Assembly: GCA_965223855.1 (NCBI GenBank)
Contig: CBDCXM010000009.1
Span: forward strand, 2,848,001-2,912,000
Length of the DNA: 64,000 nt
Source of the DNA: Candidatus Multivoradales bacterium
Lineage (GTDB): Bacteria; Acidobacteriota; Thermoanaerobaculia; Multivoradales; JAHEKO01
Direction: 5' to 3'
Shown here: in pieces, positions 1 through 20,294 of the stretch
Numbering within the stretch: position 1 is the first letter of the stretch
Layout of the letters: every line of letters begins with the position of its first letter
Made by a program: the position numbers and the translations under genes
The notes under the pieces: generated by a model
Told to the model about the DNA's origin: nothing
The model's input: only the letters and a program-made list of their open reading frames with translations
Databases searched by the model: none

Positions 1-615
1 GGCACCGACACCACGCAGTTCCTCTTCCAGTACGACTACTTCCACGAGGCTCGCGCCATGGGTGACGGGCTCGTGGGCTGGTACATCCTGCGGGTCGAGG
101 ACCCGGAACGCGCCGTCGAGGTCGCCAACGCCATCGACCAGGAGTTCGCGAACTCTCCCGCCGAGACGCGGACCGAAACCGAGATGGCGTTTCTCCAGGG
201 GTTCGCCAACCAGGTCGGCAACGTCGGGAAGATCCTGATGGCGGTGCTCGCCGCCGTCTTCTTCACGATCCTGCTGGTGGCGGGCAACACGATGGCTCAG
301 GCGGTGCGCGAGCGCACCGAAGAGATCGGGGTGCTCAAGGCGATGGGCTATCGCAACGGCCAGGTGCTCGGCCTGGTGCTCGGCGAATCCCTGCTGCTGG
401 CTCTGCTCGGCGGAGGGCTCGGTCTGGTGCTGGCCTGGTTCTTCATCACCACGGGTGGAGATCCGACCGGTGGTGCGCTGCCGATCTTCTACCTGCCGCG
501 AGGGAAGGTGATCGTCGGGCTCTGCCTGATCCTCGGGCTGGGGGTGGTGACCGGACTGCTGCCGGCGCTCCAGGCGATGCGTCTCAACGTCTCCGACGCG
601 CTGAGGAGGGGGTAA
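1..615 (+). CDS. ABC transporter permease, MacB/FtsX family (5' partial)
   Basis: Frame is open from base 1. FtsX-type C-terminus (VRERTEEIGVLKAMG...VLGESLLL) with TM helices. Confidence 0.9.
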   Translation, partial: GTDTTQFLFQYDYFHEARAMGDGLVGWYILRVEDPERAVEVANAIDQEFANSPAETRTETEMAFLQGFANQVGNVGKILMAVLAAVFFTILLVAGNTMAQAVRERTEEIGVLKAMGYRNGQVLGLVLGESLLLALLGGGLGLVLAWFFITTGGDPTGGALPIFYLPRGKVIVGLCLILGLGVVTGLLPALQAMRLNVSDALRRG

Positions 616-618
616 CCG

Positions 619-1815
619 ATGGCGATCCTGCGCTGGCTGCGACAGGTTCTGTCGGTGACGCGGTACAGCTTCACCACCATCCCTCAGCGCTGGGGCTCGT
701 CGCTCTCTTCGGCGTTCGGCATCGCCGGTGTGGTCGCGGTCCTCGTCGGGGTGCTGTCGATCGCTCAGGGGGTGCGTTCGACGATGCAGCAGTCGGCGTC
801 GCAGGACACCGCGATCGTGCTGCGCGACGGTTCCAACTCGGAGATGATGAGCATTCTCGGTCGCGACGGCGCGCGGGCGATTGCCGATACCGCGGGCGTG
901 CGGCACGACGGTGACGGACCCATGTCGTCCGCCGAGCTGTTCGTCATCATCGACCTCCCGAAGCGCTCGACCGGCACGGACGCCAACGTGCCGCTGCGGG
1001 GCGTCGAGGCTGCGGCCTTCAAGGTGCGCGACAACCTGAGGATCGTCGAGGGGCGGAGTTTCGAGTGGGGGCGCAACGAGGTCATCGTCGGCGTCGGCGC
1101 GGCCCGCGAGTTCGCCGGTCTCGACCTGGGGGGAGAGCTCCCGGTCGGCGGTGACGGCTGGAAGATCGTCGGCCTGTTCGAGGCCGGCGGAGGCATCGCC
1201 GAGTCGGAGGTGTGGACGGATGCCAGCATCCTGCAGGCCGCCTATCAGCGTGGCGAGTCGTTTCAGGCGGTCTACACCCGCCTCGAGAGCCCGGAGGCGT
1301 TCGCGGCCTTCAAGGATGCGCTTCAGAGCGACCCACGGGTCAGCGTCGATGTCTTCCGCCAGGAGGAGTACTACGAGGAGCAGTCGGCGATCCTCACCGG
1401 GTTGATCACAGGCCTCGGTCTTCTGATCACGTTGCTGATGGCGATCGGAGCGGTGTTCGGCGCGCTCAACACGATGTACACCGCCGTCTCCGCACGCACC
1501 CGGGAGATCGCGACCTTGCGGGCCGTGGGTTTTCGCAGCGGGCCCGTGGTGCTGTCGGTTCTGGCCGAGTCGCTGCTGCTGGCGCTCGCCGGTGGGACGG
1601 TGGGCGGCCTCGCCGCCTACTTCGCCTTCGACGGCTTTCGTGCGGCGACGATCAACTGGCAGTCGTTCAGCCAGGTCGCCTTCAGCTTCGACGTCACGCC
1701 GGGGTTGGTGATCGCCGGGATCGTCTGCGCCGGCGTGATCGGCTTCTTCGGCGGCCTGTTCCCGGCGGTTCGCGCGGCTCGCATGCCGATCGCGACCGCG
1801 CTGCGCGAGAGCTGA
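619..1815 (+). CDS. ABC transporter permease, MacB/FtsX family
   Basis: N-terminal TM, periplasmic domain, RTREIATLRAVGF motif, three C-terminal TMs. Preceded by a GGAGG RBS. Confidence 0.9.
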   Translation: MAILRWLRQVLSVTRYSFTTIPQRWGSSLSSAFGIAGVVAVLVGVLSIAQGVRSTMQQSASQDTAIVLRDGSNSEMMSILGRDGARAIADTAGVRHDGDGPMSSAELFVIIDLPKRSTGTDANVPLRGVEAAAFKVRDNLRIVEGRSFEWGRNEVIVGVGAAREFAGLDLGGELPVGGDGWKIVGLFEAGGGIAESEVWTDASILQAAYQRGESFQAVYTRLESPEAFAAFKDALQSDPRVSVDVFRQEEYYEEQSAILTGLITGLGLLITLLMAIGAVFGALNTMYTAVSARTREIATLRAVGFRSGPVVLSVLAESLLLALAGGTVGGLAAYFAFDGFRAATINWQSFSQVAFSFDVTPGLVIAGIVCAGVIGFFGGLFPAVRAARMPIATALRES

Positions 1816-1835
1816 AGGAAGGGCCGAGCGGGATC

Positions 1836-2906
1836 GTGCAGGGGAGAGCCATCGACTGGGGACGGCACTTCCTGATCGGCCTGCAGAAGTCGCCGACTCT
1901 CACCGAGCACGACCGCAGGCTTCTGGCCGAGCTCCGGCCGGCGGGAGTGGTGCTGTTCCGTGACAACTTCGATCACGAACCGCCGTATCCGGACTGGCTC
2001 GATCCGCTGAGGGCGCTGCTCGACCAGGCGCGCGAGGCGATCGGTCGCGACCGCATCGTTGTCGCCGTCGATCACGAAGGCGGGCAGGTGATCCGTACCC
2101 CGGCTCCGGTGACCGACTTCGGCGAGGCGGCGTCGTGGGCCTCGCAGGCCGCGCAGGTGGGGAGCGGGATGGGTCGCGAGCTGGCCTCCCTCGGCATCAA
2201 CGTCAACTTCGCGCCCGTCGTCGACGTGCACTCGAACCCGGCGAATCCGGTGATCGGCAGCCGCGCGCTGGGAACGGATCCGCGCTCGGTGATCCGCGCC
2301 GCCCGGAGTTTCCTGCGGGCGCAGCAGGCGGAGGGGGTTCTCGGCTGCCTCAAGCACTATCCCGGGCACGGCGACACCGCGGTCGATTCGCACGAGGCTC
2401 TGCCGGTAGTCGATCGCTCGCTCGAGAGCCTTCGTCGTCGGGAACTGGCGCCGTTCCTCGAGCTTCTCGACGAGACCGTCGAGCTGGTGATGACGGCCCA
2501 CGTCCACTATCCGCAGTGGGATCCGGAGTGGCCGGCGACCCTGTCACGACGCATCGTCGAGGAGACGCTGCGCCATCGGGCGGGCTACGAAGGAGTCGTC
2601 ACGACGGACGACCTCGGGATGCGCGCCATTTCGGAGCGGTTCGACGAACCGGGGATCCCCGCGCGCGCTCTGACCGCGGGGTGCGACTGGCTCACCGTCT
2701 GCGCTCACCTCACCGACACCGGACGGGCCCTCGGAATGGCACGATCCCTGGCGCGCAGCCACGCGGAGGGCGAACTTGCGGACGAAGTCGTCCGCCGCTC
2801 CAGGCGTCGCATCGAGCGCCTCCTCGCCTCCTTGCCGCAGCACCCGGTGAGAGAGCTGCCGCCGGAGACCTTCGCCGAGCACCGGCTCGGCGCCCAGGCA
2901 GGCTAG
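1836..2906 (+). CDS. nagZ: Beta-N-acetylhexosaminidase, GH3
   Basis: [13 protein letters not shown] and [14 protein letters not shown] (NagZ KH[FY]PGHG..DxH) motifs. Start reassigned to the GTG at 1836 inside the 1212..2906 ORF. Confidence 0.85.
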
Positions 2907-3424: not shown

Positions 3425-3622
3425 GAGGGTTCCTTTCTCGATCGGGAGATCGTCGGGGGTGTAGGCCGGCCATACGGCGTCGCGCCCCGGGGTGCTTCCC
3501 GGCTCGGTCGCCGACGGCCGCCGATGGTGACAGATTCGCCGGCGAGTTGCTCGGCCGCCTCCCGTTTGCGGTCGGGAGAGGCCGTCCTATACTGCCCACT
3601 CCTCCCGGAGGAGACCCCCGCG

Positions 3623-4936
3623 ATGACCGCTGCCTCGCTGACCACGACCGTTCTGATCGTCGACGACGAACCCGGCATTCTCGCCACCTTGTCCGGCGTC
3701 CTCGCCGACGAGGGCTACGCGACGCTGACCGCCGAGAGCGGGGAGCGCGCGATCGAGCTGTACGCTCGGGAGTCGCCCGATGTTGTCTTCCTCGACGTCT
3801 GGTTGCCCGACAAGGACGGTCTCGAGATCCTGCAGGCGCTGCGCGAGCAGGATCCGGCGGCGGCGGTGATCATGATGTCGGGGCACGGCACCGCCTCGAC
3901 GGCGGTCAAGGCGATCAAGATGGGGGCGTTCGAGTACGTCGAGAAGCCGCTGTCCTACAACGAGGCTGTCGATGCCGTCGCAGGCGCCCTCCAGTATCGG
4001 GAGTCGGTGAGCCGCGACAGCGACCTGCTTTCGACGCTCGAGAAGACCAAGACCCGCCTCGAGGAGAGTCCGCGGCTGCAGCCGCCGCCGCCACTGCCGC
4101 TCCTCCAGGTGACCGACGAGCCGCAGCGCACGCTCGCTGCCGGGACGGTCCTCTACGGTCTCGGTCTCCACTCCGGCAACCGGACCGGCATGACGCTCCA
4201 GCCGCTGCCGGTCGACACCGGGATTCACTTCGTCTCGCTACCGACGAATACGGTGCTGCCGGCTCACATCTCGTCGGTGGCCGAGACCGACTACGCGACG
4301 ACCCTGTCGCGCGACGGCCAGGACATCAAGACGGTCGAACACCTCCTCTCTGCCTTGCGTGCAGCGGGAGTGACGAACCTGCTCATCAAGGTGCACGGCG
4401 AGATTCCGGTGCTCGACGGTTCCGCGCTCGAGTTCTGCGAGGCGCTCGAGCGGGTCGGCGTCGTCGAGCAGTCGGCGCCGCGCCGGGAGATCGTCATCGA
4501 CCGTCGCTACGAGGTGAGCGGCGAAGGGGGCAAGCAGCTCAGCATCGAGCCTGCTGAGACCTTCTCGGCACGCTACGAGCTCAGCTACCCGCCGCCGGTC
4601 GGGGATCAGGTGTGTGAGTTCGAACTCACCGACTACGACTCCTATCGCGATGCGATCGCGCCCGCCCGGACATTCGGTTTCATGAAGGACCTCGGCATGA
4701 TGCAGGAACTCGGGCTCGGCACCGGCGGCCGGCTCGACAACTGCATCCTCGTCGGCGAAGACAACGTCATCAACACCCGCCTGCGCTTCTCTGACGAGTT
4801 TGCCCGTCACAAGGTGCTCGACATCATCGGCGACCTCTACCTTCTCGGCTACCCGATTCGTGGGCGGGTCGTCGGCCGTCTGACCGGTCACAAGATGAAC
4901 ATCGCCCTGCTGCGCGAGATCGCGGCGACGGCCTGA
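3623..4936 (+). CDS. lpxC: Response-regulator receiver fused to UDP-3-O-acyl-GlcNAc deacetylase (REC-LpxC)
   Basis: ATG at 3623 after GGAGGAG. Receiver motifs VLIVDDE, FLDVWLP, MSGHG, EKP. LpxC motifs QRTL..GLGLHSG, TVEHLLSAL, EIPVLDGSA, ARTFGF, RHKVLDIIGDL, GHKMN. Confidence 0.92.
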   Translation: MTAASLTTTVLIVDDEPGILATLSGVLADEGYATLTAESGERAIELYARESPDVVFLDVWLPDKDGLEILQALREQDPAAAVIMMSGHGTASTAVKAIKMGAFEYVEKPLSYNEAVDAVAGALQYRESVSRDSDLLSTLEKTKTRLEESPRLQPPPPLPLLQVTDEPQRTLAAGTVLYGLGLHSGNRTGMTLQPLPVDTGIHFVSLPTNTVLPAHISSVAETDYATTLSRDGQDIKTVEHLLSALRAAGVTNLLIKVHGEIPVLDGSALEFCEALERVGVVEQSAPRREIVIDRRYEVSGEGGKQLSIEPAETFSARYELSYPPPVGDQVCEFELTDYDSYRDAIAPARTFGFMKDLGMMQELGLGTGGRLDNCILVGEDNVINTRLRFSDEFARHKVLDIIGDLYLLGYPIRGRVVGRLTGHKMNIALLREIAATA

Positions 4937-9072: not shown

Positions 9073-10284
9073 TCAGCTCTCGGCGAGCCGTTCGACCCCT
9101 GCGTAGCCACCCTCTTCGAGTGACGCAAGCAGGCGTTCACCGTGCTCCGGATCCCGGGTCTCGAGGGTGAGGTCGACCGATGCGGACCAGAAGTCGGCTC
9201 CGGCGAAGTTGCGATCGTGCTCGACCCTGCGGACGTTGGCCCCCTCGCGCGCGACGGCGTCGAGCAGGCCTGCGAGCGCACCCGGGCGATCGCTGAGTCG
9301 GACCCGCAGGCGGATGAGGCGCCGCCGACGCACGAGCGATCGCTCGACCACCCGCGCGAGGACGCCGGGGTCGATGTTGCCGCCACTGATCACCACGACG
9401 ACCTTGCGGCCGGCGAACCGTCTATCCGGGGCGAGAAGCGGGGCGCATGCAGCGGCACCGGCCCCCTCGACGACGAGCTTCGAGCCGTCGAGCAGCTCGT
9501 AGATCGCCTCTTCGATCTCGCGCTCCGAAACGGTCCGGATCGCCTCTACAGTGCTGCTGACGATCGAGAACGTGAGCTCACCCGGCAGGCGCACGCTCAG
9601 CCCTTCCGCGAGAGTGGGCCCGACGAGGTGGCTACTGCGCTCGCCGCTGTCGAAGCTGAGTTTCATCGCCGGCGCGGCCTCGCTCTGAACTCCGAGCACC
9701 CGCGTCGGTGCCGTCGCCAGCGCCGACCCGATGCCGGAGATCAGGCCGCCGCCGCCGATGCCGACGAGCACATCGTCGGCGTCGGGGACCTGCTCGGCGA
9801 TCTCGAGTCCGACCGTCCCCTGGCCCGCGATCACGTCGGGGTGATCGAACGGAGGGACGAGGGTGCGCCCCTCCCTCCCGGCGATCTCGATCGCATGCTC
9901 CTGAGCCTCGTCGAAGACGCTGCCCGCCAGAACGACCTCCGCCCCCAATGCGCGGGTCCGCTCGATCTTCACCAGCGGTGTCGGTTCCGGCATGACGATG
10001 AGGGCGGAGACCCCCAGATGGCGGGCACCGAAGGCGACTCCCTGCGCGTGATTGCCCGCCGATGCGGCGACGACGCCGCGAGCGCGCTCGTCCTCCGGGA
10101 GACGAAGCATCCGATGAGTGGCGCCACGAACCTTGAAGGAGCCGGTGTGCTGGAGACTCTCCAGCTTGAGCCAGACCTCGGCTCCCGACGTCTCGCAAAG
10201 ACGCGCGTCCCGGATCACCGGCGTCACCGGCAGATAGGGCGCGAGGCGTTCGCGGGCGGCCTCAATTGCGGAAAGGTCGATCAT
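9073..10284 (-). CDS. ilvA: Threonine ammonia-lyase with C-terminal ACT domain
   Basis: KLESLQHTGSFKVRGA (PLP lysine), SAGNHAQG, GGGGL, SGGNID, ACT motif LSDRPGAL. An alternative TTG start lies at 10314. Confidence 0.92.
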   Translation of the reverse strand: MIDLSAIEAARERLAPYLPVTPVIRDARLCETSGAEVWLKLESLQHTGSFKVRGATHRMLRLPEDERARGVVAASAGNHAQGVAFGARHLGVSALIVMPEPTPLVKIERTRALGAEVVLAGSVFDEAQEHAIEIAGREGRTLVPPFDHPDVIAGQGTVGLEIAEQVPDADDVLVGIGGGGLISGIGSALATAPTRVLGVQSEAAPAMKLSFDSGERSSHLVGPTLAEGLSVRLPGELTFSIVSSTVEAIRTVSEREIEEAIYELLDGSKLVVEGAGAAACAPLLAPDRRFAGRKVVVVISGGNIDPGVLARVVERSLVRRRRLIRLRVRLSDRPGALAGLLDAVAREGANVRRVEHDRNFAGADFWSASVDLTLETRDPEHGERLLASLEEGGYAGVERLAES

Positions 10285-10388
10285 CGACTGCGCACGCGGC
10301 GACGGCTCGGTCAAGATATCAGAGGGTCGGGGGCTTCCGGCCCGACACTCGACCGCCGGGAGGGATTCGACTAGGCTCCCGTTTTCAC

Positions 10389-11603
10389 ATGCTCGATCTG
10401 CTCAGCCCCCTCGCTTTCGTCGCGGCCGGCCTTCTGGTGCTCGTGCTGCTTCTGACCTGGTTGCTCTACCGGGTCTCGAGGCGGGTGCGGGCCTTCGAGC
10501 GCGACGTCGCGACCCTGAGGTCGGCGGCAAACCAGGCGAGTCGCGCCGAGGCGCAGGAGGCCTCGCTCGATCGGCTGCTGGTCGATCTGACACGTCTGAC
10601 GGAGCGTCTGCGCGATGCTCGCGACGCCCGCGAGATTCCGCAACTCGTCGTCCACATCGTTCAGCGCACCTTCGATGCGGATCAGGTCGTGGTCCTCTTT
10701 GCACGACGCCCGGCGGAGACGCAGGGCAAGTCGCCGACCCTGGTGGTGGCCGCATCGTCGTCCGGCTCGCTCGAGCGGGCGCTCAACCGCGAGATCGGCT
10801 TCGGCGAGGGAGAGCTGGGGCTGGTCGCCGATCTGCAGGAGGCCGTCGACCGCCAGGATCTCGACGGCCGCCGCATCCCGGGGCACACGACGGTGCCGGG
10901 ACTGCGATCGTTCCGCACCGACCTCGCCGTGCCGATGGTGGTCGCAGGGCAGACCTTCGGGGTCGTCGCCGTGTCGGGCCTCGGACGGCACTACCGGCGC
11001 GAGAAGACGATGCTGTCGCTGATCGCCCAGACCGCCGGCTTCGGCCTGCAGAGCGCGGCGTCCTATTCCGCGCTCAAGGCGAAGGCCGATCTCGACGGGC
11101 TGACCCGCATTCTCAACCGGCGCGCCGTCGACTACCGCCTCGGTGAACTGGTCTTCGAGGCAGAGCGGTCCGGGCGTGAGGTCGGAGTCGTGCTGCTCGA
11201 CGTCGATCACTTCAAGCCCTACAACGACAACAACGGACATGCGGCCGGCGATCGGGCGCTCCAGGATCTGGCGGCTCTCGTCAACGAGTCCCTGCGCGCG
11301 GAGGATGTCTTCGGCCGCTTCGGTGGAGAGGAGTTCGTCGTCGTCGCGCCGAATCAGTCGGTGGCCTCGACCTACGGCCTGGCGGAGAAGCTGCGGTCGA
11401 AGATCGAGGCTCACGACTTCGAGTACGCGGTCGACCAGCCGCTGGGTCGGGTCACCGTGAGCGGCGGCATCGCCGTCTTCCCGCACCACGGCCGCGACAG
11501 CACGGACCTGCTGCAGAGCGCGGACCAGGCGCTCTACAAGGCGAAGCAGGCAGGGCGGAACCGGATCGAGATCAGCCCGGCTCAGGCGGCGGGGGGATCG
11601 TGA
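10389..11603 (+). CDS. Membrane-anchored GAF-GGDEF diguanylate cyclase
   Basis: N-terminal TM, GAF-like middle, DGLTRILNRR, DVDHFKPYND..GH..GD, RFGGEEF. Confidence 0.92.
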   Translation: MLDLLSPLAFVAAGLLVLVLLLTWLLYRVSRRVRAFERDVATLRSAANQASRAEAQEASLDRLLVDLTRLTERLRDARDAREIPQLVVHIVQRTFDADQVVVLFARRPAETQGKSPTLVVAASSSGSLERALNREIGFGEGELGLVADLQEAVDRQDLDGRRIPGHTTVPGLRSFRTDLAVPMVVAGQTFGVVAVSGLGRHYRREKTMLSLIAQTAGFGLQSAASYSALKAKADLDGLTRILNRRAVDYRLGELVFEAERSGREVGVVLLDVDHFKPYNDNNGHAAGDRALQDLAALVNESLRAEDVFGRFGGEEFVVVAPNQSVASTYGLAEKLRSKIEAHDFEYAVDQPLGRVTVSGGIAVFPHHGRDSTDLLQSADQALYKAKQAGRNRIEISPAQAAGGS

Positions 11604-14055: not shown

Positions 14056-15534
14056 TCAATACCGGTAGTGGTCGGGCTTGTAGGGACCCTCGACCGGCAC
14101 GCCGATGTAGGCGGCCTGCTTCTCGGTCAGCGTGGTCAGCTGGACCCCGAGCTGCTCGAGGTGAAGCCTGGCGACCTCTTCGTCGAGCTTCTTGGGCAGC
14201 ATCGTGACCGTCTTCTCGTAGGAGCCGCGGTGAGCCCACAGATCCATCTGGGCGAGCACCTGATTCGTGAAGGAGGCGGACATCACGAAGCTCGGGTGGC
14301 CGGTCGCGCAACCGAGATTCATCAGGCGCCCTTCGGCGAGGATCAGCACGCTGCGGCCGGTCGGGAAGCGCCACTCGTCGTACTGCGGCTTGATGTTGAC
14401 GCACTCGACGCCGTCCATCCGCTTGAGGCCGGCGATGTCGATCTCGTTGTCGAAATGGCCGATGTTGGCGACGATCGCTTTGTCCTTCATGCGCGCCATG
14501 TCCTCAGCCTTGAGGATGTCGAAGTTGCCGGTCGTGGTGATGAAGATGTCGGCGGTCTCGACGACCTCCTCGAGGGTCGTCACCTCGTAGCCCTCCATCG
14601 CCGCCTGCAGCGCGCAGATCGGGTCGATCTCGGTGACGATCACCCGCGCCCCCTGGCCGCGGAGCGCCTGGGCACATCCCTTGCCGACTTCGCCGAAGCC
14701 GAAAACCACCGCGACCTTGCCGCCGATCATGACGTCGGTGGCGCGGTTGAGCCCGTCGAGCACCGAGTGGCGGCAACCGTAGACGTTGTCGAACTTCGAC
14801 TTGGTCACCGAGTCGTTGACGTTGATGGCGGGGAAGAGGAGCGTTCCGGCACGCTCCATCTCGTAGAGGCGGTGCACTCCGGTCGTGGTCTCCTCGGAGA
14901 CGCCCTGGATCGCCTCGGCGATCTTCGTCCAGCGACCGGGATGCTCGGCGAGCTCGGTGCGGATGGTCTCGAGGATGACGCTCCATTCCTCGGGATCCTC
15001 GTCCGTGGCAGTCGGCACTTCACCGGCGAGCTCGAACTCGCGCGCCTTGTGGACCAGCAGCGTGGCGTCGCCACCGTCATCGACGATCAGGTCGGGACCC
15101 GAGCCGTCGGGCCAGACCAGCGCCTCGCGGGTGCACCACCAGTACTCCTCGAGAGTCTCGCCCTTCCAGGCGAAGACTGCGATCCCCTGCGGGTTCTCGA
15201 CGGTGCCCTCGCGACCGACCGCAACCGCGGCGGCGGCGGAGTCCTGGGTCGAGAAGATGTTGCACGACACCCAGCGGACGTCGGCGCCGAGGTCGACGAG
15301 GGTTTCGATCAGCACGGCGGTCTGCACCGTCATGTGCAGGCTGCCCATGATCTTGGCGCCGGCGAGCGGCTTGGTCTCGGCGTAGCGTGCCCGCAGCGCC
15401 ATGAGGCCGGGCATCTCGTGCTCGGCGAGGTTGATCTCGCGACGGCCGAGGTCGGCCAGCGAGAGGTCGGCGACCTTGTACGGCAGCCGTGTGGTGGCGG
15501 CTCCGGTCGAATGAGAGTCGGTGAGAACGGTCAT
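14056..15534 (-). CDS. ahcY: Adenosylhomocysteinase
   Basis: [60 protein letters not shown]. Confidence 0.98.
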
Positions 15535-15582
15535 GGGGATCTCCGTAGGTGGGTCGGCGGGCGTGCCGCCGGGGGTTTCGAG

Positions 15583-16638
15583 TCAGGCTTGGTGTCGAGG
15601 GGAGGGAAGTGGGTTCGAAGGCGGCTCGGTCGGCGTCGTCGACGCAGGTGGTGCCGGGTCGGACGGTACTTCCGGTCGGGTGAAACGAACCACATAGAGG
15701 CCGGGGCCCTTGGCGGCGGGATCCGGAGAGAGCGAGACGGCAGGCTCCGCTCGGAGCCCGGCGCGGGTTGCCCACTGAGCGAGCTGATCGGGCTCGAAGC
15801 CGAGCCAGACGTGGCCCATCGCCTGCCGGTAGTCGTCGCGCTCGTGCTGGTGCATCTCGAGGACGACGAGACGGCCACCGGGAGCGAGCGCCCGGGCCGC
15901 CTCGGCGATCACCGCTTCGGGCTCGGCGAGATGGTGGAGGACGAGGCCGAGGAAGGCGACGTCGAGGGAACGGTCGGGGATCGGCAACTGCTCGAGCCGG
16001 CCGCGGCGCAGTTCCACATTGTCGAACCCGGAGAGCCGCTCGGCCGCCGTCTCGAGCATCGCCTCGGAGGCGTCGACGGCGATCACTCTGTGGACGAACG
16101 GTGCGAGCGTGGCGGCGATCTCGCCGCTACCGGTGCCGAGGTCGCCGACCACGAGGTCGGGAGAGAGCAGGGCGACCAGCGCTTCGAGATCGAAACGGCC
16201 GCCGAAGAGCTCGCGGCGCATCTGGGACCACTCGCCGGCGGACGAGGAGAAGAACTCCTCCGACCCGCTGCGACGCTCGGCCAGCACCGCTTCCAGCCTG
16301 CGAGCGTCATCGACCGCCGCCGGGCTCGCGACGACCTCGGGACGCAGCAGAGACCACAACCCGGCCGTGCGCTCCGCCTCCACCGCCGACCCCGCCGAGT
16401 AGAGCCGCCGCGTCCCTTCCGGCCGCACCCGCACCCAGCCATCCTCCGCCAGCGCCTTGAGATGCCGGCTGGCGGTCGACTGCGGCAACTGGAGGACGTC
16501 GCAAAGCTCCGAAACCGTCAGTTCCGCCCCTTCCAGCACGAGCAACGCCCGACACCGCACCGGCTCACCCAGAACCGCGAGGCTGTCGAACAAAGAGATC
16601 GGCGGAAGGCCCGCCGCGAACTGATTCAATCCGTCCAT
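15583..16638 (-). CDS. ArsR HTH-SAM methyltransferase fusion regulator (SahR-like)
   Basis: ELTVSELCDVLQLPQSTASRHLKAL HTH plus VGDLGTGSG methyltransferase motif, directly upstream of ahcY. ATG at 16638 chosen. Confidence 0.88.
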   Translation of the reverse strand: MDGLNQFAAGLPPISLFDSLAVLGEPVRCRALLVLEGAELTVSELCDVLQLPQSTASRHLKALAEDGWVRVRPEGTRRLYSAGSAVEAERTAGLWSLLRPEVVASPAAVDDARRLEAVLAERRSGSEEFFSSSAGEWSQMRRELFGGRFDLEALVALLSPDLVVGDLGTGSGEIAATLAPFVHRVIAVDASEAMLETAAERLSGFDNVELRRGRLEQLPIPDRSLDVAFLGLVLHHLAEPEAVIAEAARALAPGGRLVVLEMHQHERDDYRQAMGHVWLGFEPDQLAQWATRAGLRAEPAVSLSPDPAAKGPGLYVVRFTRPEVPSDPAPPASTTPTEPPSNPLPSPRHQA

Positions 16639-16676
16639 CCGGATCGTAGGATACATCCTCCCCCTACCAACCGCAA
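16629..16676 (-). promoter_or_regulatory. Sigma70-type promoter and palindromic operator for the sahR-like/ahcY operon
   Basis: TTGCGG (16676-16671), 17 nt spacer, TATCCT (16653-16648). Palindrome ATCCG-N6-CGGAT at 16629-16644. Confidence 0.6.
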
Positions 16677-16752
16677 CCCCTACCTGCCGATCCACCGAGG
16701 AGCCAGTCACCCATTGACCTCTTCCCCCATCAACCACTCTCCGCCTTCCATC

Positions 16753-16896
16753 AGGTGCCAGGTGAATGTCCAAGATCTCATCCAGGGGCCAGGCGAATGG
16801 AGGCGAAGTGATCTCATCCAGGTGCCAGGTGAATGGTGGTGGATCCAAGTGCCAGGTGAGTGGTGGTGGGGTTCTGACGAGGTGCCAGGTATTTGG
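16753..16896. repeat. Five degenerate direct repeats, consensus AGGTGCCAGGTGAATGG
   Basis: Units start at 16753, 16784, 16820, 16847 and 16880 (spacing 27-36 nt). Confidence 0.8.
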
Positions 16897-16964
16897 AGCC
16901 GGGCGGGTGGGTGGGGGCGTAGTAGTCTCCGCATTCGCCTTCGGGCGATGGAAAGAGGACTCTG

Positions 16965-18674
<1,710 letters not shown>

Positions 18675-18695: not shown

Positions 18696-20294
18696 TCAGG
18701 GCACGGTTGCCGACCACGCCGCAGTGTCGCCGCTCTCGAAACCGTCGGCGAACACCAGCGGATCGCCGCCGATCTCGACGCATTCGCTCGCCGGCCCGAA
18801 GCACGACGGTCCGGAAGCCCCGATCGGAATCACGACGTACCCGTACCGTCGCCCTTCGAGGACCTCGGGATCGCTGAAGGCGGTGGCGCTCGTCGCACCG
18901 ATGAGGATCCTGCCGAGGTCGCACCCGAGAGGCCCGTCGGTGCGGTAGACCGAGTACGAGGCGGCTCCCGCGACGCCGGTCCAGGCGAGGTCGATGGCCC
19001 CCGCATTCGTGGAGGCCGTCAGGGCCGGAGCCTCGGCGGGTCCGCCGAGGCAGCCGCCGTCGATGACCACCGGCCCGCCGTTCGCCGGCGTACAGCCGAT
19101 CTCGTGGCGGTCGAAAGCGGCGGCGATGGCGCTCATGTTGGGAGTGCCGTTGGCGAGGTTGCCGTCGTCGTCGTCAGCCGCCAGCAACTGAAGATACGCC
19201 TGGCCGGCGCCGCAGCCGGCCGCCCCGGGCGGAGGACCGGCGAGATCGAACCAGCCGGAAGCGTTGCCGCCGCCGACATAGGTGAGGCGCGTCGTGACTT
19301 CCTGCGCGGTCCCCGAGTCGAAGCCACGCTCCGCACCAAGATCGCGAACGTAGAGGTCCCAGATCGCCTCGGAGTAGGCGGCGCCGACGCACTGCACGGT
19401 GCCGCCGCAGTTCGCGCGCACCCAGGTCAACGTGTGCGGCGAACCGGAGACCCGGTCCTCCCAGTCGATCGTCCGAATCCCGTCGCAGGTGACGCACGGA
19501 TCCCCGTAGCCGCTGCAGGTCGAGCCGGACAGCAGGAGCCCGCGGCCGATGCAGGCGTCGGCCAACCGCAGGGCGGAGTAGACGTCGGCGATCCCTTCAC
19601 CGCCCCCCTGGCCCGAAGTCACGATCGCACCGCTGGCGTCGTTCTGGTCCATCCCGTGGCCCCACTCGTGGTCGAGCACGCTCGCGATCTGCCCGGGGTT
19701 GGCACACGGCCCCATCTCCTGTGAGGTGCGCACCCGGGTACCGTCCCAGAAGGCGAAGCAGCTCGCGATGTCGAGATTGACCTCGGCCTCCACCTGCCCG
19801 CCGAGCCAGCCGTTCGCGGGCAGGTAGCCCCGCGCCTGCTGAGCGATCCTGTTGAGCTCGTAGAAGGCGGTTCGGGAGGCCGCGGTGTTCCCCGGCGAGG
19901 CCCCGGCCGGGATGTCGCAATCGACGTCTCCGTCGCTGCCGCCCAGAGCAATGTCGCCGTCACCTCCCTCGCTCAGGGCGCCGCACTGGTCCGTGATCGT
20001 CACATGGCGACCGGAGAGCGTCGTCGTCCTCGTGCCGGTCGCGGTGAAGCCGCCGCTGCTGTCGGTGAAGCTGCCGTCGCCGAGGTCCGCGTACGGCATC
20101 GGCGCCTCGAGATCCATGACCCCGCCGGGAGCGGCTCCGCCGTAGGTCAGCGGGTAGACCCCCCCGGTGAGGCTGCGAGCCATCCCCTCGCCCTGCGCAC
20201 CGCCTCCCGCGGGCGCGCTCGCTCGCGCCCCGCTGTCCGGCATTGCAGCGAGGGCGTACAGCAGGCCCGCCAGCAGCGCTCCCGCGGGCATCAC
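18696..20294 (-). CDS. Secreted M4/M36-like zinc metallopeptidase with C-terminal FADGFESGD motif
   Basis: Signal-like N-terminus, HEWGH plus downstream GEGIAD third ligand, FnIII-like region, ends LVFADGFESGDTAAWSATVP. Confidence 0.75.
   Translation of the reverse strand: MMPAGALLAGLLYALAAMPDSGARASAPAGGGAQGEGMARSLTGGVYPLTYGGAAPGGVMDLEAPMPYADLGDGSFTDSSGGFTATGTRTTTLSGRHVTITDQCGALSEGGDGDIALGGSDGDVDCDIPAGASPGNTAASRTAFYELNRIAQQARGYLPANGWLGGQVEAEVNLDIASCFAFWDGTRVRTSQEMGPCANPGQIASVLDHEWGHGMDQNDASGAIVTSGQGGGEGIADVYSALRLADACIGRGLLLSGSTCSGYGDPCVTCDGIRTIDWEDRVSGSPHTLTWVRANCGGTVQCVGAAYSEAIWDLYVRDLGAERGFDSGTAQEVTTRLTYVGGGNASGWFDLAGPPPGAAGCGAGQAYLQLLAADDDDGNLANGTPNMSAIAAAFDRHEIGCTPANGGPVVIDGGCLGGPAEAPALTASTNAGAIDLAWTGVAGAASYSVYRTDGPLGCDLGRILIGATSATAFSDPEVLEGRRYGYVVIPIGASGPSCFGPASECVEIGGDPLVFADGFESGDTAAWSATVP

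Follow-up and report, generated by a model that had tools for sequence, protein, structure and literature searches.

Several known proteins, among them CheB, PleD and RpfG, consist of an N-terminal receiver domain that governs a C-terminal catalytic domain within one polypeptide, and in CheB the receiver keeps the active site blocked until it is phosphorylated. LpxC, which catalyses the committed step of lipid A formation, is the point at which lipopolysaccharide synthesis is controlled and a target of antibiotics; most of what is understood of its regulation comes from a few proteobacteria, where it proceeds through proteolysis or protein activators. Two-component systems that act on the transcription of lpxC are also described: NtrYX reduces the transcription of lpxC in R. 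sphaeroides and C. crescentus (PMC7240162, PMC12444477), and in Desulfovibrio a kinase (DVU2931 / Dde_3000) and a sigma54 regulator (DVU2934 / Dde_3003) have lpxC, which carries a sigma54 promoter, as their sole target (PMC3333781, PMC4045070). The DUF4390 protein PlrP has been described as a periplasmic third component of the NtrYX-family system PlrSR (PMC13001219). Here, we analysed a gene of Candidatus Multivoradales bacterium (Acidobacteriota; Thermoanaerobaculia) in which a receiver domain is fused to LpxC (REC-LpxC), located in a 64,000-nt stretch of DNA, hereafter the window (assembly GCA_965223855.1, contig CBDCXM010000009.1, positions 2,848,001 to 2,912,000 of the forward strand). Our analyses point, with a probability of roughly 0.6, to a response regulator whose output is LpxC itself, which would have taken over an older circuit dedicated to lpxC, with an orphan kinase encoded elsewhere in the genome phosphorylating Asp58 of the receiver and thereby activating the enzyme.

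The fusion gene is one uninterrupted open reading frame (ORF) at window positions 3623-4936 (+), translated into 437 amino acids (aa) plus stop, and a Shine-Dalgarno-like GGAGGAG, read directly from the sequence, lies on the same strand at 3607..3613, 9 nt 5′ of the ATG. In this G+C-rich DNA, the same reading frame is open upstream to position 2135; these extra 496 residues contain no domain detectable in a Pfam scan. The initial annotation, made from the sequence alone, had described a receiver, a Pro-rich linker and LpxC within a single ORF, and translation, Pfam and NCBIfam all bear this out. The receiver (aa 10-119; 3650..3979, +) matches Response_reg PF00072 with 101.9 bits (E 2.9e-29); its top NCBIfam receiver-family match is NtrX (NF051870, residues 9-140, E 2.2e-30), and its best matches among solved structures are the receivers of NtrC4, NtrX and NtrC1. 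The LpxC deacetylase domain (aa 168-434; 4124..4924, +) is identified by PF03331 (profile positions 1-267 of 268, 283.5 bits against a cut-off of 27, E 2.3e-84), by the NCBIfam lpxC equivalog TIGR00325 (236.4 bits against a cut-off of 187.25), by alignment to solved LpxC and by a Foldseek comparison. Between the two lies a Pro-rich linker of 48 aa (aa 120-167; 3980..4123, +; PRLQPPPPLPLL), delimited by the secondary structure of an AlphaFold2 (AF2) model and by comparison with longer relatives, which passes from an extended helix alpha5 through a second helix (residues 112-131 and 133-142) into a Pro-rich extended stretch (block values of the predicted local distance difference test, pLDDT, 75-91). 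Compared with the NtrC/NtrX-family sigma54 activators, the protein has the NtrX-type receiver and lacks the other two parts: Pfam detected neither AAA+ (PF00158) nor a Fis-type helix–turn–helix (HTH; PF02954) in it, the gap between receiver and LpxC is only 48 aa long, and the linker contains no remnant of either domain.

Both parts retain the residues expected of working domains. Across 61 aligned fused homologues, the most divergent of them at 32% identity, D14, D15, D58 (within FLDVW), S86 and K108 of the receiver, along with W60 at position D+2, are invariant (61/61); the codon of the predicted phospho-acceptor Asp58 lies at 3794..3796 (+). Invariant in the same 61 homologues are E239, H240, H396, K397, D400, D404 and H423 of the LpxC part, and T350 is nearly so. 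The enzyme motifs TVEHLLSA, ARTFGFM, HKxLDxIGD and GH of solved P. aeruginosa LpxC are all matched, with E239-H240, T350-F351, H396-K397-D400, D404 and H423 aligning to the equivalent positions; we take these residues to be the zinc ligands (His, His and Asp), the catalytic Glu/His, the Thr-Phe pair and the Lys. The DD pocket, phospho-Asp, Ser and Lys noticed at the outset, as well as a complete LpxC with its EH and HKxLD residues (E239-H240 and H396-K397-x-x-D400), are therefore present and conserved. An AF2 model built on the homologue alignment reached a mean pLDDT of 91.4 and a predicted TM-score (pTM) of 0.90, which suggests that the receiver and the enzyme are held in a fixed mutual arrangement, and its LpxC part superimposes on A. 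aeolicus LpxC (1yh8_A) with a target-normalised TM-score of 0.96, a root-mean-square deviation of 1.3 and E 1.5e-33. Thus, the fold, the catalytic residues and the committed-step position are shared with the stand-alone LpxC of E. coli, P. aeruginosa and A. aeolicus, an enzyme known for its control by FtsH, LapB and YejM, whereas the 167-aa receiver and linker, the membership in a separate clade of fused forms and the C-terminus set REC-LpxC apart: the window protein stops where the solved E. coli and P. aeruginosa chains run ~20-28 residues further, and so lacks a C-terminal tail.

The absence of such a tail bears on the possibility that the receiver sets the amount of LpxC rather than its activity, phosphorylation exposing the protein to FtsH, Lon or Clp or hiding it from them, perhaps through a LapA/LapB-like protein, so that the logic known from E. 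coli would be kept and given a new input. Proteolysis is indeed the best-known mode of LpxC level control (PMC12444477), and the window genome encodes both FtsH and a protein that combines a LapA domain, tetratricopeptide repeats (TPR) and a sub-cut-off LapB zinc ribbon. Nevertheless, the C-terminal tail that the protein lacks is named as the FtsH degron in the literature, and a search of the genome for LapB gave only matches below the curated cut-offs, with the zinc-ribbon family also matching 10 of 14 control genomes, including Gram-positives. We therefore regard control of the amount as unlikely. The LapA-domain protein itself (L095:283-1668 (+), on contig C9 of the window genome) is 461 aa long, with its LapA domain near the cut-off; judging by its sequence features, it is possibly LapA/LapB-like, in an organism whose LpxC is devoid of the C-terminal tail.

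The fusion itself is well attested. In a search of 5.8 billion proteins, each of the 120 best matches has both domains; 119 are proteins other than the query, 429-462 aa long with 66-87% identity, and the source records list them simply as LpxC from metagenome genomes of Acidobacteriota or Thermoanaerobaculia. A six-frame search recovered a stop-free, full-length fusion in 33 of the 121 class genomes. Logan contigs of public runs, which may derive from the source sample, span the domain junction with no indel; the joints in this comparison had sides of 20-30 letters in short contigs and were taken to be pieces of other organisms. A stop or frameshift between the domains, for which we looked in the public-run contigs and in the 33 genomes, was found in neither. 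With the ORF stop-free in 33 genomes and both domains together in every one of the best database matches, which come from several sources, an assembly or frameshift artefact uniting two genes is hardly credible.

REC-LpxC also appears to be the working LpxC of its genome. The assembly (4.52 Mb, 92.5% complete) gave a single LpxC match, which is the fusion gene, and a second, stand-alone lpxC, for which the initial annotation had proposed to look, was not found in it; lpxA, lpxB and lpxK are all present. As the sole LpxC in a genome with these three genes, REC-LpxC would be the deacetylase acting on UDP-3-O-acyl-GlcNAc, an assignment that is indirect. The observation that neither a cognate kinase nor another lpx gene adjoins the fusion gene holds over ~10 kb around it, and the candidate kinase lies elsewhere in the genome (see below).

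The architecture reaches well beyond this genome, as a search for its taxonomic range showed: it is present in 33 of the 121 class genomes, in 17 of the 201 genomes of a phylum sample and in further phyla. Seven of the 33 fusion-bearing class genomes also have a stand-alone LpxC, 87 genomes gave a stand-alone match only and one gave none; in the phylum sample, 11 of the 17 fusion genomes lie outside the class and belong to three families of other classes, 172 genomes gave a stand-alone match only and 12 gave none. The fusion is thus a minority architecture that is patchy even inside one order, where it is found in families f1, f2, f3, f5 and f6 and in none of the 18 genomes of family f4. Genome G013 (94% complete) had no LpxC-level match in the class search, and its three family relatives carry the fusion. 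The class counts of LpxC and kinase include the unpublished genomes G004 and G104, the phylum count includes G004, G166 and G261, and locus L017 of G104 contributes one row to the trees and to the receiver-signature, promoter and kinase comparisons; dropping the unpublished genomes lowers each count by one to three and leaves the conclusions unchanged.

Genomes of the class without the fusion reveal what it may have replaced. There, lpxC is followed by a DUF4390 gene, a kinase gene and the gene of a sigma54 regulator; the kinase is ~725-750 aa long with the order HAMP-PAS-HisKA-HATPase, and the regulator is built as REC-AAA-lid-HTH_8. An orthologue of this kinase was detected in 116 of the 121 class genomes, among them all 33 with the fusion. 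All five sampled genomes of genus g29 (G024, G032, G056, G084 and G092) carry a stand-alone LpxC and gave no NtrY-like kinase match at E ≤ 1e-60. With three fusion genomes (G008, G018 and G023) left out of the comparison, the kinase loci fall into three states. Where the fusion is absent (state A), the order lpxC-DUF4390-kinase-regulator was found at 20 of 20 kinase loci; where the fusion coexists with a stand-alone lpxC (state B), the operon is intact in six of six genomes; and where the fusion stands alone (state C), the DUF4390 and kinase genes remain with neither lpxC nor the regulator adjoining. State C comprises 22 loci, the window genome included; one of them belongs to G097, in which a stand-alone lpxC persists on a different contig. 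Two of these loci lie near a contig end, and for them the absence of lpxC rests on the genome-wide class search.

Two genomes of one genus, G021 and G098, represent in-between states, and both retain the regulator. The contig of G098 ends short of the position of lpxC. In G021, a stand-alone lpxC is still located beside the kinase gene (L065:6251-7006 (-)); its frame is open and scores 98 bits against PF03331, covering profile positions 1-182 only, with the zinc-ligand His and Asp, the Lys, the Thr-Phe pair and the general-acid His replaced and a gap of 17 residues. Judged by these substitutions, it is a catalytically decayed relic.

The promoters follow the same division. Searching for the sigma54 pattern TGGCAC-N5-xTGCx (at least 9 of 11 positions; background 0.003-0.009 matches per 100 nt), we identified a promoter 37-104 nt before the start of the LpxC domain at 12 of 12 stand-alone lpxC loci, and none within 300 nt upstream of the 29 fused genes, nor at the window gene. 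Taken together with the kinase loci, these patterns indicate that the sigma54 regulator and the sigma54-dependent lpxC have disappeared jointly where the fusion stands alone. A sigma54-like motif also lies 74 nt upstream of a stand-alone lpxC of fusion genome G097 (L088; G097:C95:20400-27200), with no DUF4390, kinase or regulator gene within ~3 kb. The non-fusion genomes, with a kinase and a sigma54 regulator in the lpxC cluster and a sigma54 promoter at all 12 loci, resemble the Desulfovibrio system, with which we compare them by logic and not by orthology. Unlike that system, in which control is transcriptional and exerted by separate proteins, the fused form carries the receiver covalently on the enzyme, without AAA+, HTH or sigma54 promoter.

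The window genome (G000) is in state C. Its DUF4390 protein and kinase are encoded outside the window, on contig C8 (563560-566326), the kinase at C8:564140-566326 and preceded by the DUF4390 gene, whose product has a signal peptide. The kinase comprises four transmembrane (TM)-like segments and a loop of ~185 aa, followed by HAMP, PAS, the dimerisation and histidine phosphotransfer (DHp) domain with His522, and the ATPase domain. The locus is preceded by a gene for a FadL-type porin, and an ABC transporter followed by selB lies downstream; in a state A relative, selB comes after the regulator, and no regulator gene follows the kinase here. This arrangement, with TM-like segments, a periplasmic loop and HAMP-PAS-HisKA-HATPase encoded after a signal-peptide DUF4390 gene, is like that of plrP-plrS (PMC13001219), and the window receiver in turn is NtrX-like. 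It differs from NtrYX and PlrSR in that the kinase has no NtrX/PlrR-type regulator adjacent to it and that the output would be an enzyme instead of a transcription factor. Across states A, B and C, the H-box and helix 1 of the DHp domain are nearly invariant, which argues that selection continues to act on the receiver-binding face of the orphan kinases.

The receiver of the fusion is related to the receiver of the regulator that has been lost. A receiver tree from a quick search (88 rows and 133 columns, root not inferred) unites 50 fused receivers and 20 receivers of lpxC-linked regulators in one set of 70 rows (Shimodaira–Hasegawa-like approximate likelihood-ratio test, SH-aLRT, 82), which leaves out all 15 other receivers of the window genome as well as three very distant fused rows (P0181, P0187 and P0190). 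The fused and lpxC-linked receivers have in common ExGI..L..(I/V)L.DEG in helix 1, LD(I/V)WLP and SGHG, and the Trp of LD(I/V)WLP is found in none of the other 15 receivers of the window genome. Receiver-only matches in non-fusion genomes, among those listed, all lie 3.1-4.2 kb from lpxC on the same strand (23/23).

Could the receiver nevertheless be phosphorylated by another kinase or by acetyl phosphate, with the NtrY-like kinase serving a different regulator? Among the proteins of the window genome, the lpxC-linked regulator is best matched by a conserved paralogue, an orphan sigma54 regulator encoded at C9:3217964-3219298 (L021:5965-7299 (-); 49.7% identity); a PAS-GGDEF-EAL gene lies on one side of it and two acyl-CoA dehydrogenase genes lie on the other. 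The existence of this candidate client, the separation of fusion gene and kinase in G000, and the lack of within-genome co-variation in helix alpha1 all speak for such a detour. On the other hand, the C9 regulator has orthologues (55-68% identity) in five state A/B genomes, in which the lpxC-linked regulator is only second best (47-51%). As it has orthologues of its own, an orthologue of the lpxC-linked regulator was not found in G000, and as these occur in genomes that have also retained the lpxC-linked regulator, the C9 protein would belong to an older, separate system; its receiver, moreover, lacks the W60/SGHG signature. That 22 kinase loci have lost both regulator and lpxC while 33 of 33 fusion genomes retain the kinase would be hard to account for otherwise than by a link between kinase and fusion, so we consider another phosphodonor improbable.

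How the fusion arose can be traced in the wider family. A search of 1.84 billion representative proteins retrieved, besides short REC-LpxC forms, proteins of 650-736 aa in which Pfam recognises REC, a sigma54-type AAA+ with its lid, and LpxC; the 26 proteins scanned comprised nine REC+AAA+LpxC, five AAA+LpxC fragments and 12 REC+LpxC. Named members of the long-form clusters come from 'Deltaproteobacteria bacterium' and Nitrospinota genomes, and intermediate forms of 491-505 aa come from Nitrospinota and Candidatus Entotheonellia. The family is a large one: in the ESM Atlas, 17 clusters of at least 50 members contain both domains, most commonly from Thermodesulfobacteriota, Acidobacteriota and Candidatus Binatota, so that the named fusion members altogether cover Acidobacteriota, Thermodesulfobacteriota, Binatota, Nitrospinota and Entotheonellia. 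All 15 long REC-AAA-LpxC representatives lack GAFTGA, the Walker B Asp-Glu and the arginine fingers, and their AAA+ should therefore be able neither to hydrolyse ATP nor to touch sigma54. Inspection by eye placed a Fis-type HTH, resembling the one in which true regulators end, directly ahead of the N-terminal QRTL of LpxC in nine of these 15 and in both REC-x-LpxC representatives; Pfam gave a single weak HTH match among the longer relatives (P0146). An HTH in this position points to a founding event in which a whole NtrX-like regulator was read through into a downstream lpxC. The fusion clade thus began as a REC-AAA-HTH regulator of the NtrX kind joined to the N-terminus of LpxC; to judge from the family's sequences, the AAA+ then decayed and was lost repeatedly and the HTH was lost afterwards, the window protein being a stripped form without either.

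The LpxC-domain tree (97 rows, quick search, root not inferred) is in line with this course. Every fused form falls on one side of a branch (61 of the 97 rows, SH-aLRT 88); the 61 include two short rows labelled as LpxC alone (P0155 and P0174) that we took to be fragments. The fused genes of the class form one group (support 97) inside a set of 47 rows that also holds REC-AAA-LpxC forms (support 95). Short forms adjoin long ones at least three times (e.g. P0146 with P0148, support 100), indicating that the AAA+ was lost more than once. The stand-alone LpxCs of the class are placed on the opposite side, among ordinary LpxCs, and the fused LpxC therefore did not arise recently from the gene already resident in the class.

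With the adjoining AAA+ and HTH modules decayed or missing among the fused proteins, portions of the original regulator have evidently become dispensable. This would also fit a receiver that is itself a relic, acting solely as a fixed dimerisation or folding module on a constitutively active LpxC, without any role for phosphorylation. We consider such a relic very improbable, since D14, D15, D58, S86 and K108, invariant in 61/61 down to 32% identity, are unexpected for a pseudo-receiver.

Considered together, the intact receiver, its attachment to the sole LpxC, the conservation of the fusion across phyla and its evolutionary tie to an operon dedicated to lpxC support the direct two-component control of LpxC put forward in the initial annotation, at the level of comparative sequence evidence. 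In the mechanism that we favour, the fused gene would have superseded a circuit made of an lpxC with a sigma54 promoter, a DUF4390/PlrP-like protein, an NtrY/PlrS-like kinase and a sigma54 regulator; with the fusion in place, the earlier lpxC and the regulator would have disappeared together, and the kinase and its periplasmic partner would have been kept. The orphan C8 kinase would phosphorylate Asp58 of REC-LpxC, a periplasmic signal would act on the enzyme itself, and transcriptional control would thereby be replaced by post-translational control. Phosphorylation would activate LpxC by undoing a receiver-enzyme or receiver-receiver arrangement that inhibits it, in the manner of CheB, although the output domains of CheB, PleD and RpfG are unrelated to LpxC. 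Activation is our guess by analogy; it would preserve the direction of control in the older circuit, where the sigma54 activator, when phosphorylated, switches lpxC on. We infer the kinase pairing and the effect on catalysis alike from sequence comparisons. More tentatively, and as a possibility that we put below an even chance, REC-LpxC may have been born elsewhere by NtrX-lpxC read-through, been acquired ready-made by this lineage and become connected to the PlrP/NtrY-type sensor already there, making the sigma54 regulator and the sigma54-dependent lpxC redundant and leaving a two-protein phosphorelay from the periplasm to LpxC. Such a connection to a resident envelope sensor would be eased by the incoming receiver being of the same kind.

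Several observations weigh against this proposal. The kinase is encoded on a contig other than that of the fusion gene, and the pairing of the two rests on co-loss, retention and family likeness. Identity in alpha1 between the fused receiver and the lpxC-linked regulator is the same within a genome (8.0/14) as across genomes (7.98/14) in the seven genomes that have both, so that alpha1 carries a family signature and gives no sign of co-variation through a shared kinase. In G097, the fusion and an orphan kinase coexist with a stand-alone lpxC retained on another contig. The missing part of the 92.5% complete genome could hold a second lpxC or the regulator, and with FtsH and the LapA/LapB-like TPR protein encoded, proteolytic control may coexist with control through the receiver. 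The key deep branches have moderate support (SH-aLRT 82-88 from quick searches), and neither tree has an inferred root. Finally, a D. alaskensis kinase mutant is described as having raised lpxC (PMC4045070), and the sign of control is thus not simply readable.

The immediate neighbourhood of the gene in the window offers no partner, as no conserved adjacent gene was found among 30 other loci. A histone-deacetylase-family gene (PF00850; 4942-5895, +) begins with a TTG 6 nt after the LpxC stop, its true start being uncertain; neither this gene nor the cyclophilin gene is found beside the fused gene at any of the 30 other loci, and from this pattern the histone-deacetylase-family gene is probably an unrelated neighbour. 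An E1 dehydrogenase gene lies downstream of the fused gene at three of the 30 loci, all from one family. Upstream, two FtsX/MacB-type permease genes and a gene for a glycoside hydrolase of family 3 (NagZ-like) occupy 58-2906 (+) and are envelope-related, with the cyclophilin gene on the opposite strand between them and the fusion gene. Further along, the window contains a GAF-GGDEF diguanylate cyclase gene (10266-11603, +) and two open frames with no Pfam match at E ≤ 1e-4 (14068-16965, +, 965 aa; 18696-20294, -, 532 aa), which may be spurious products of G+C-rich DNA or unknown genes.

Our searches of full-text literature, outside which subscription journals and supplements lie, turned up no account of a receiver-LpxC fusion, and the words 'fused', 'fusion', 'receiver' and 'response regulator' do not occur in the text of a 2025 review of lipid A regulation. 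What is new here is the series of three states, the finding that lpxC and its regulator were lost together, the contrast in promoters, an lpxC in decay and the orphan kinase of this genome. If our interpretation is true, a receiver on LpxC would constitute a third, direct mode of control, in which a kinase signal acts on the enzyme. On the more tentative reading of an acquired fusion, the phosphorelay would fulfil the function that the PbgA/LapB/FtsH feedback has in E. coli with unrelated parts, and it would document a swap of transcriptional for post-translational control of one enzyme. The three genomic states form an unusually clear natural series for a transcriptional circuit that would have been short-circuited into a post-translational one. 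Made up of a single kinase, an exported accessory protein and the enzyme itself, REC-LpxC and its partners would be a simple system for following how an envelope signal is converted into lipid A flux in little-studied diderm phyla.

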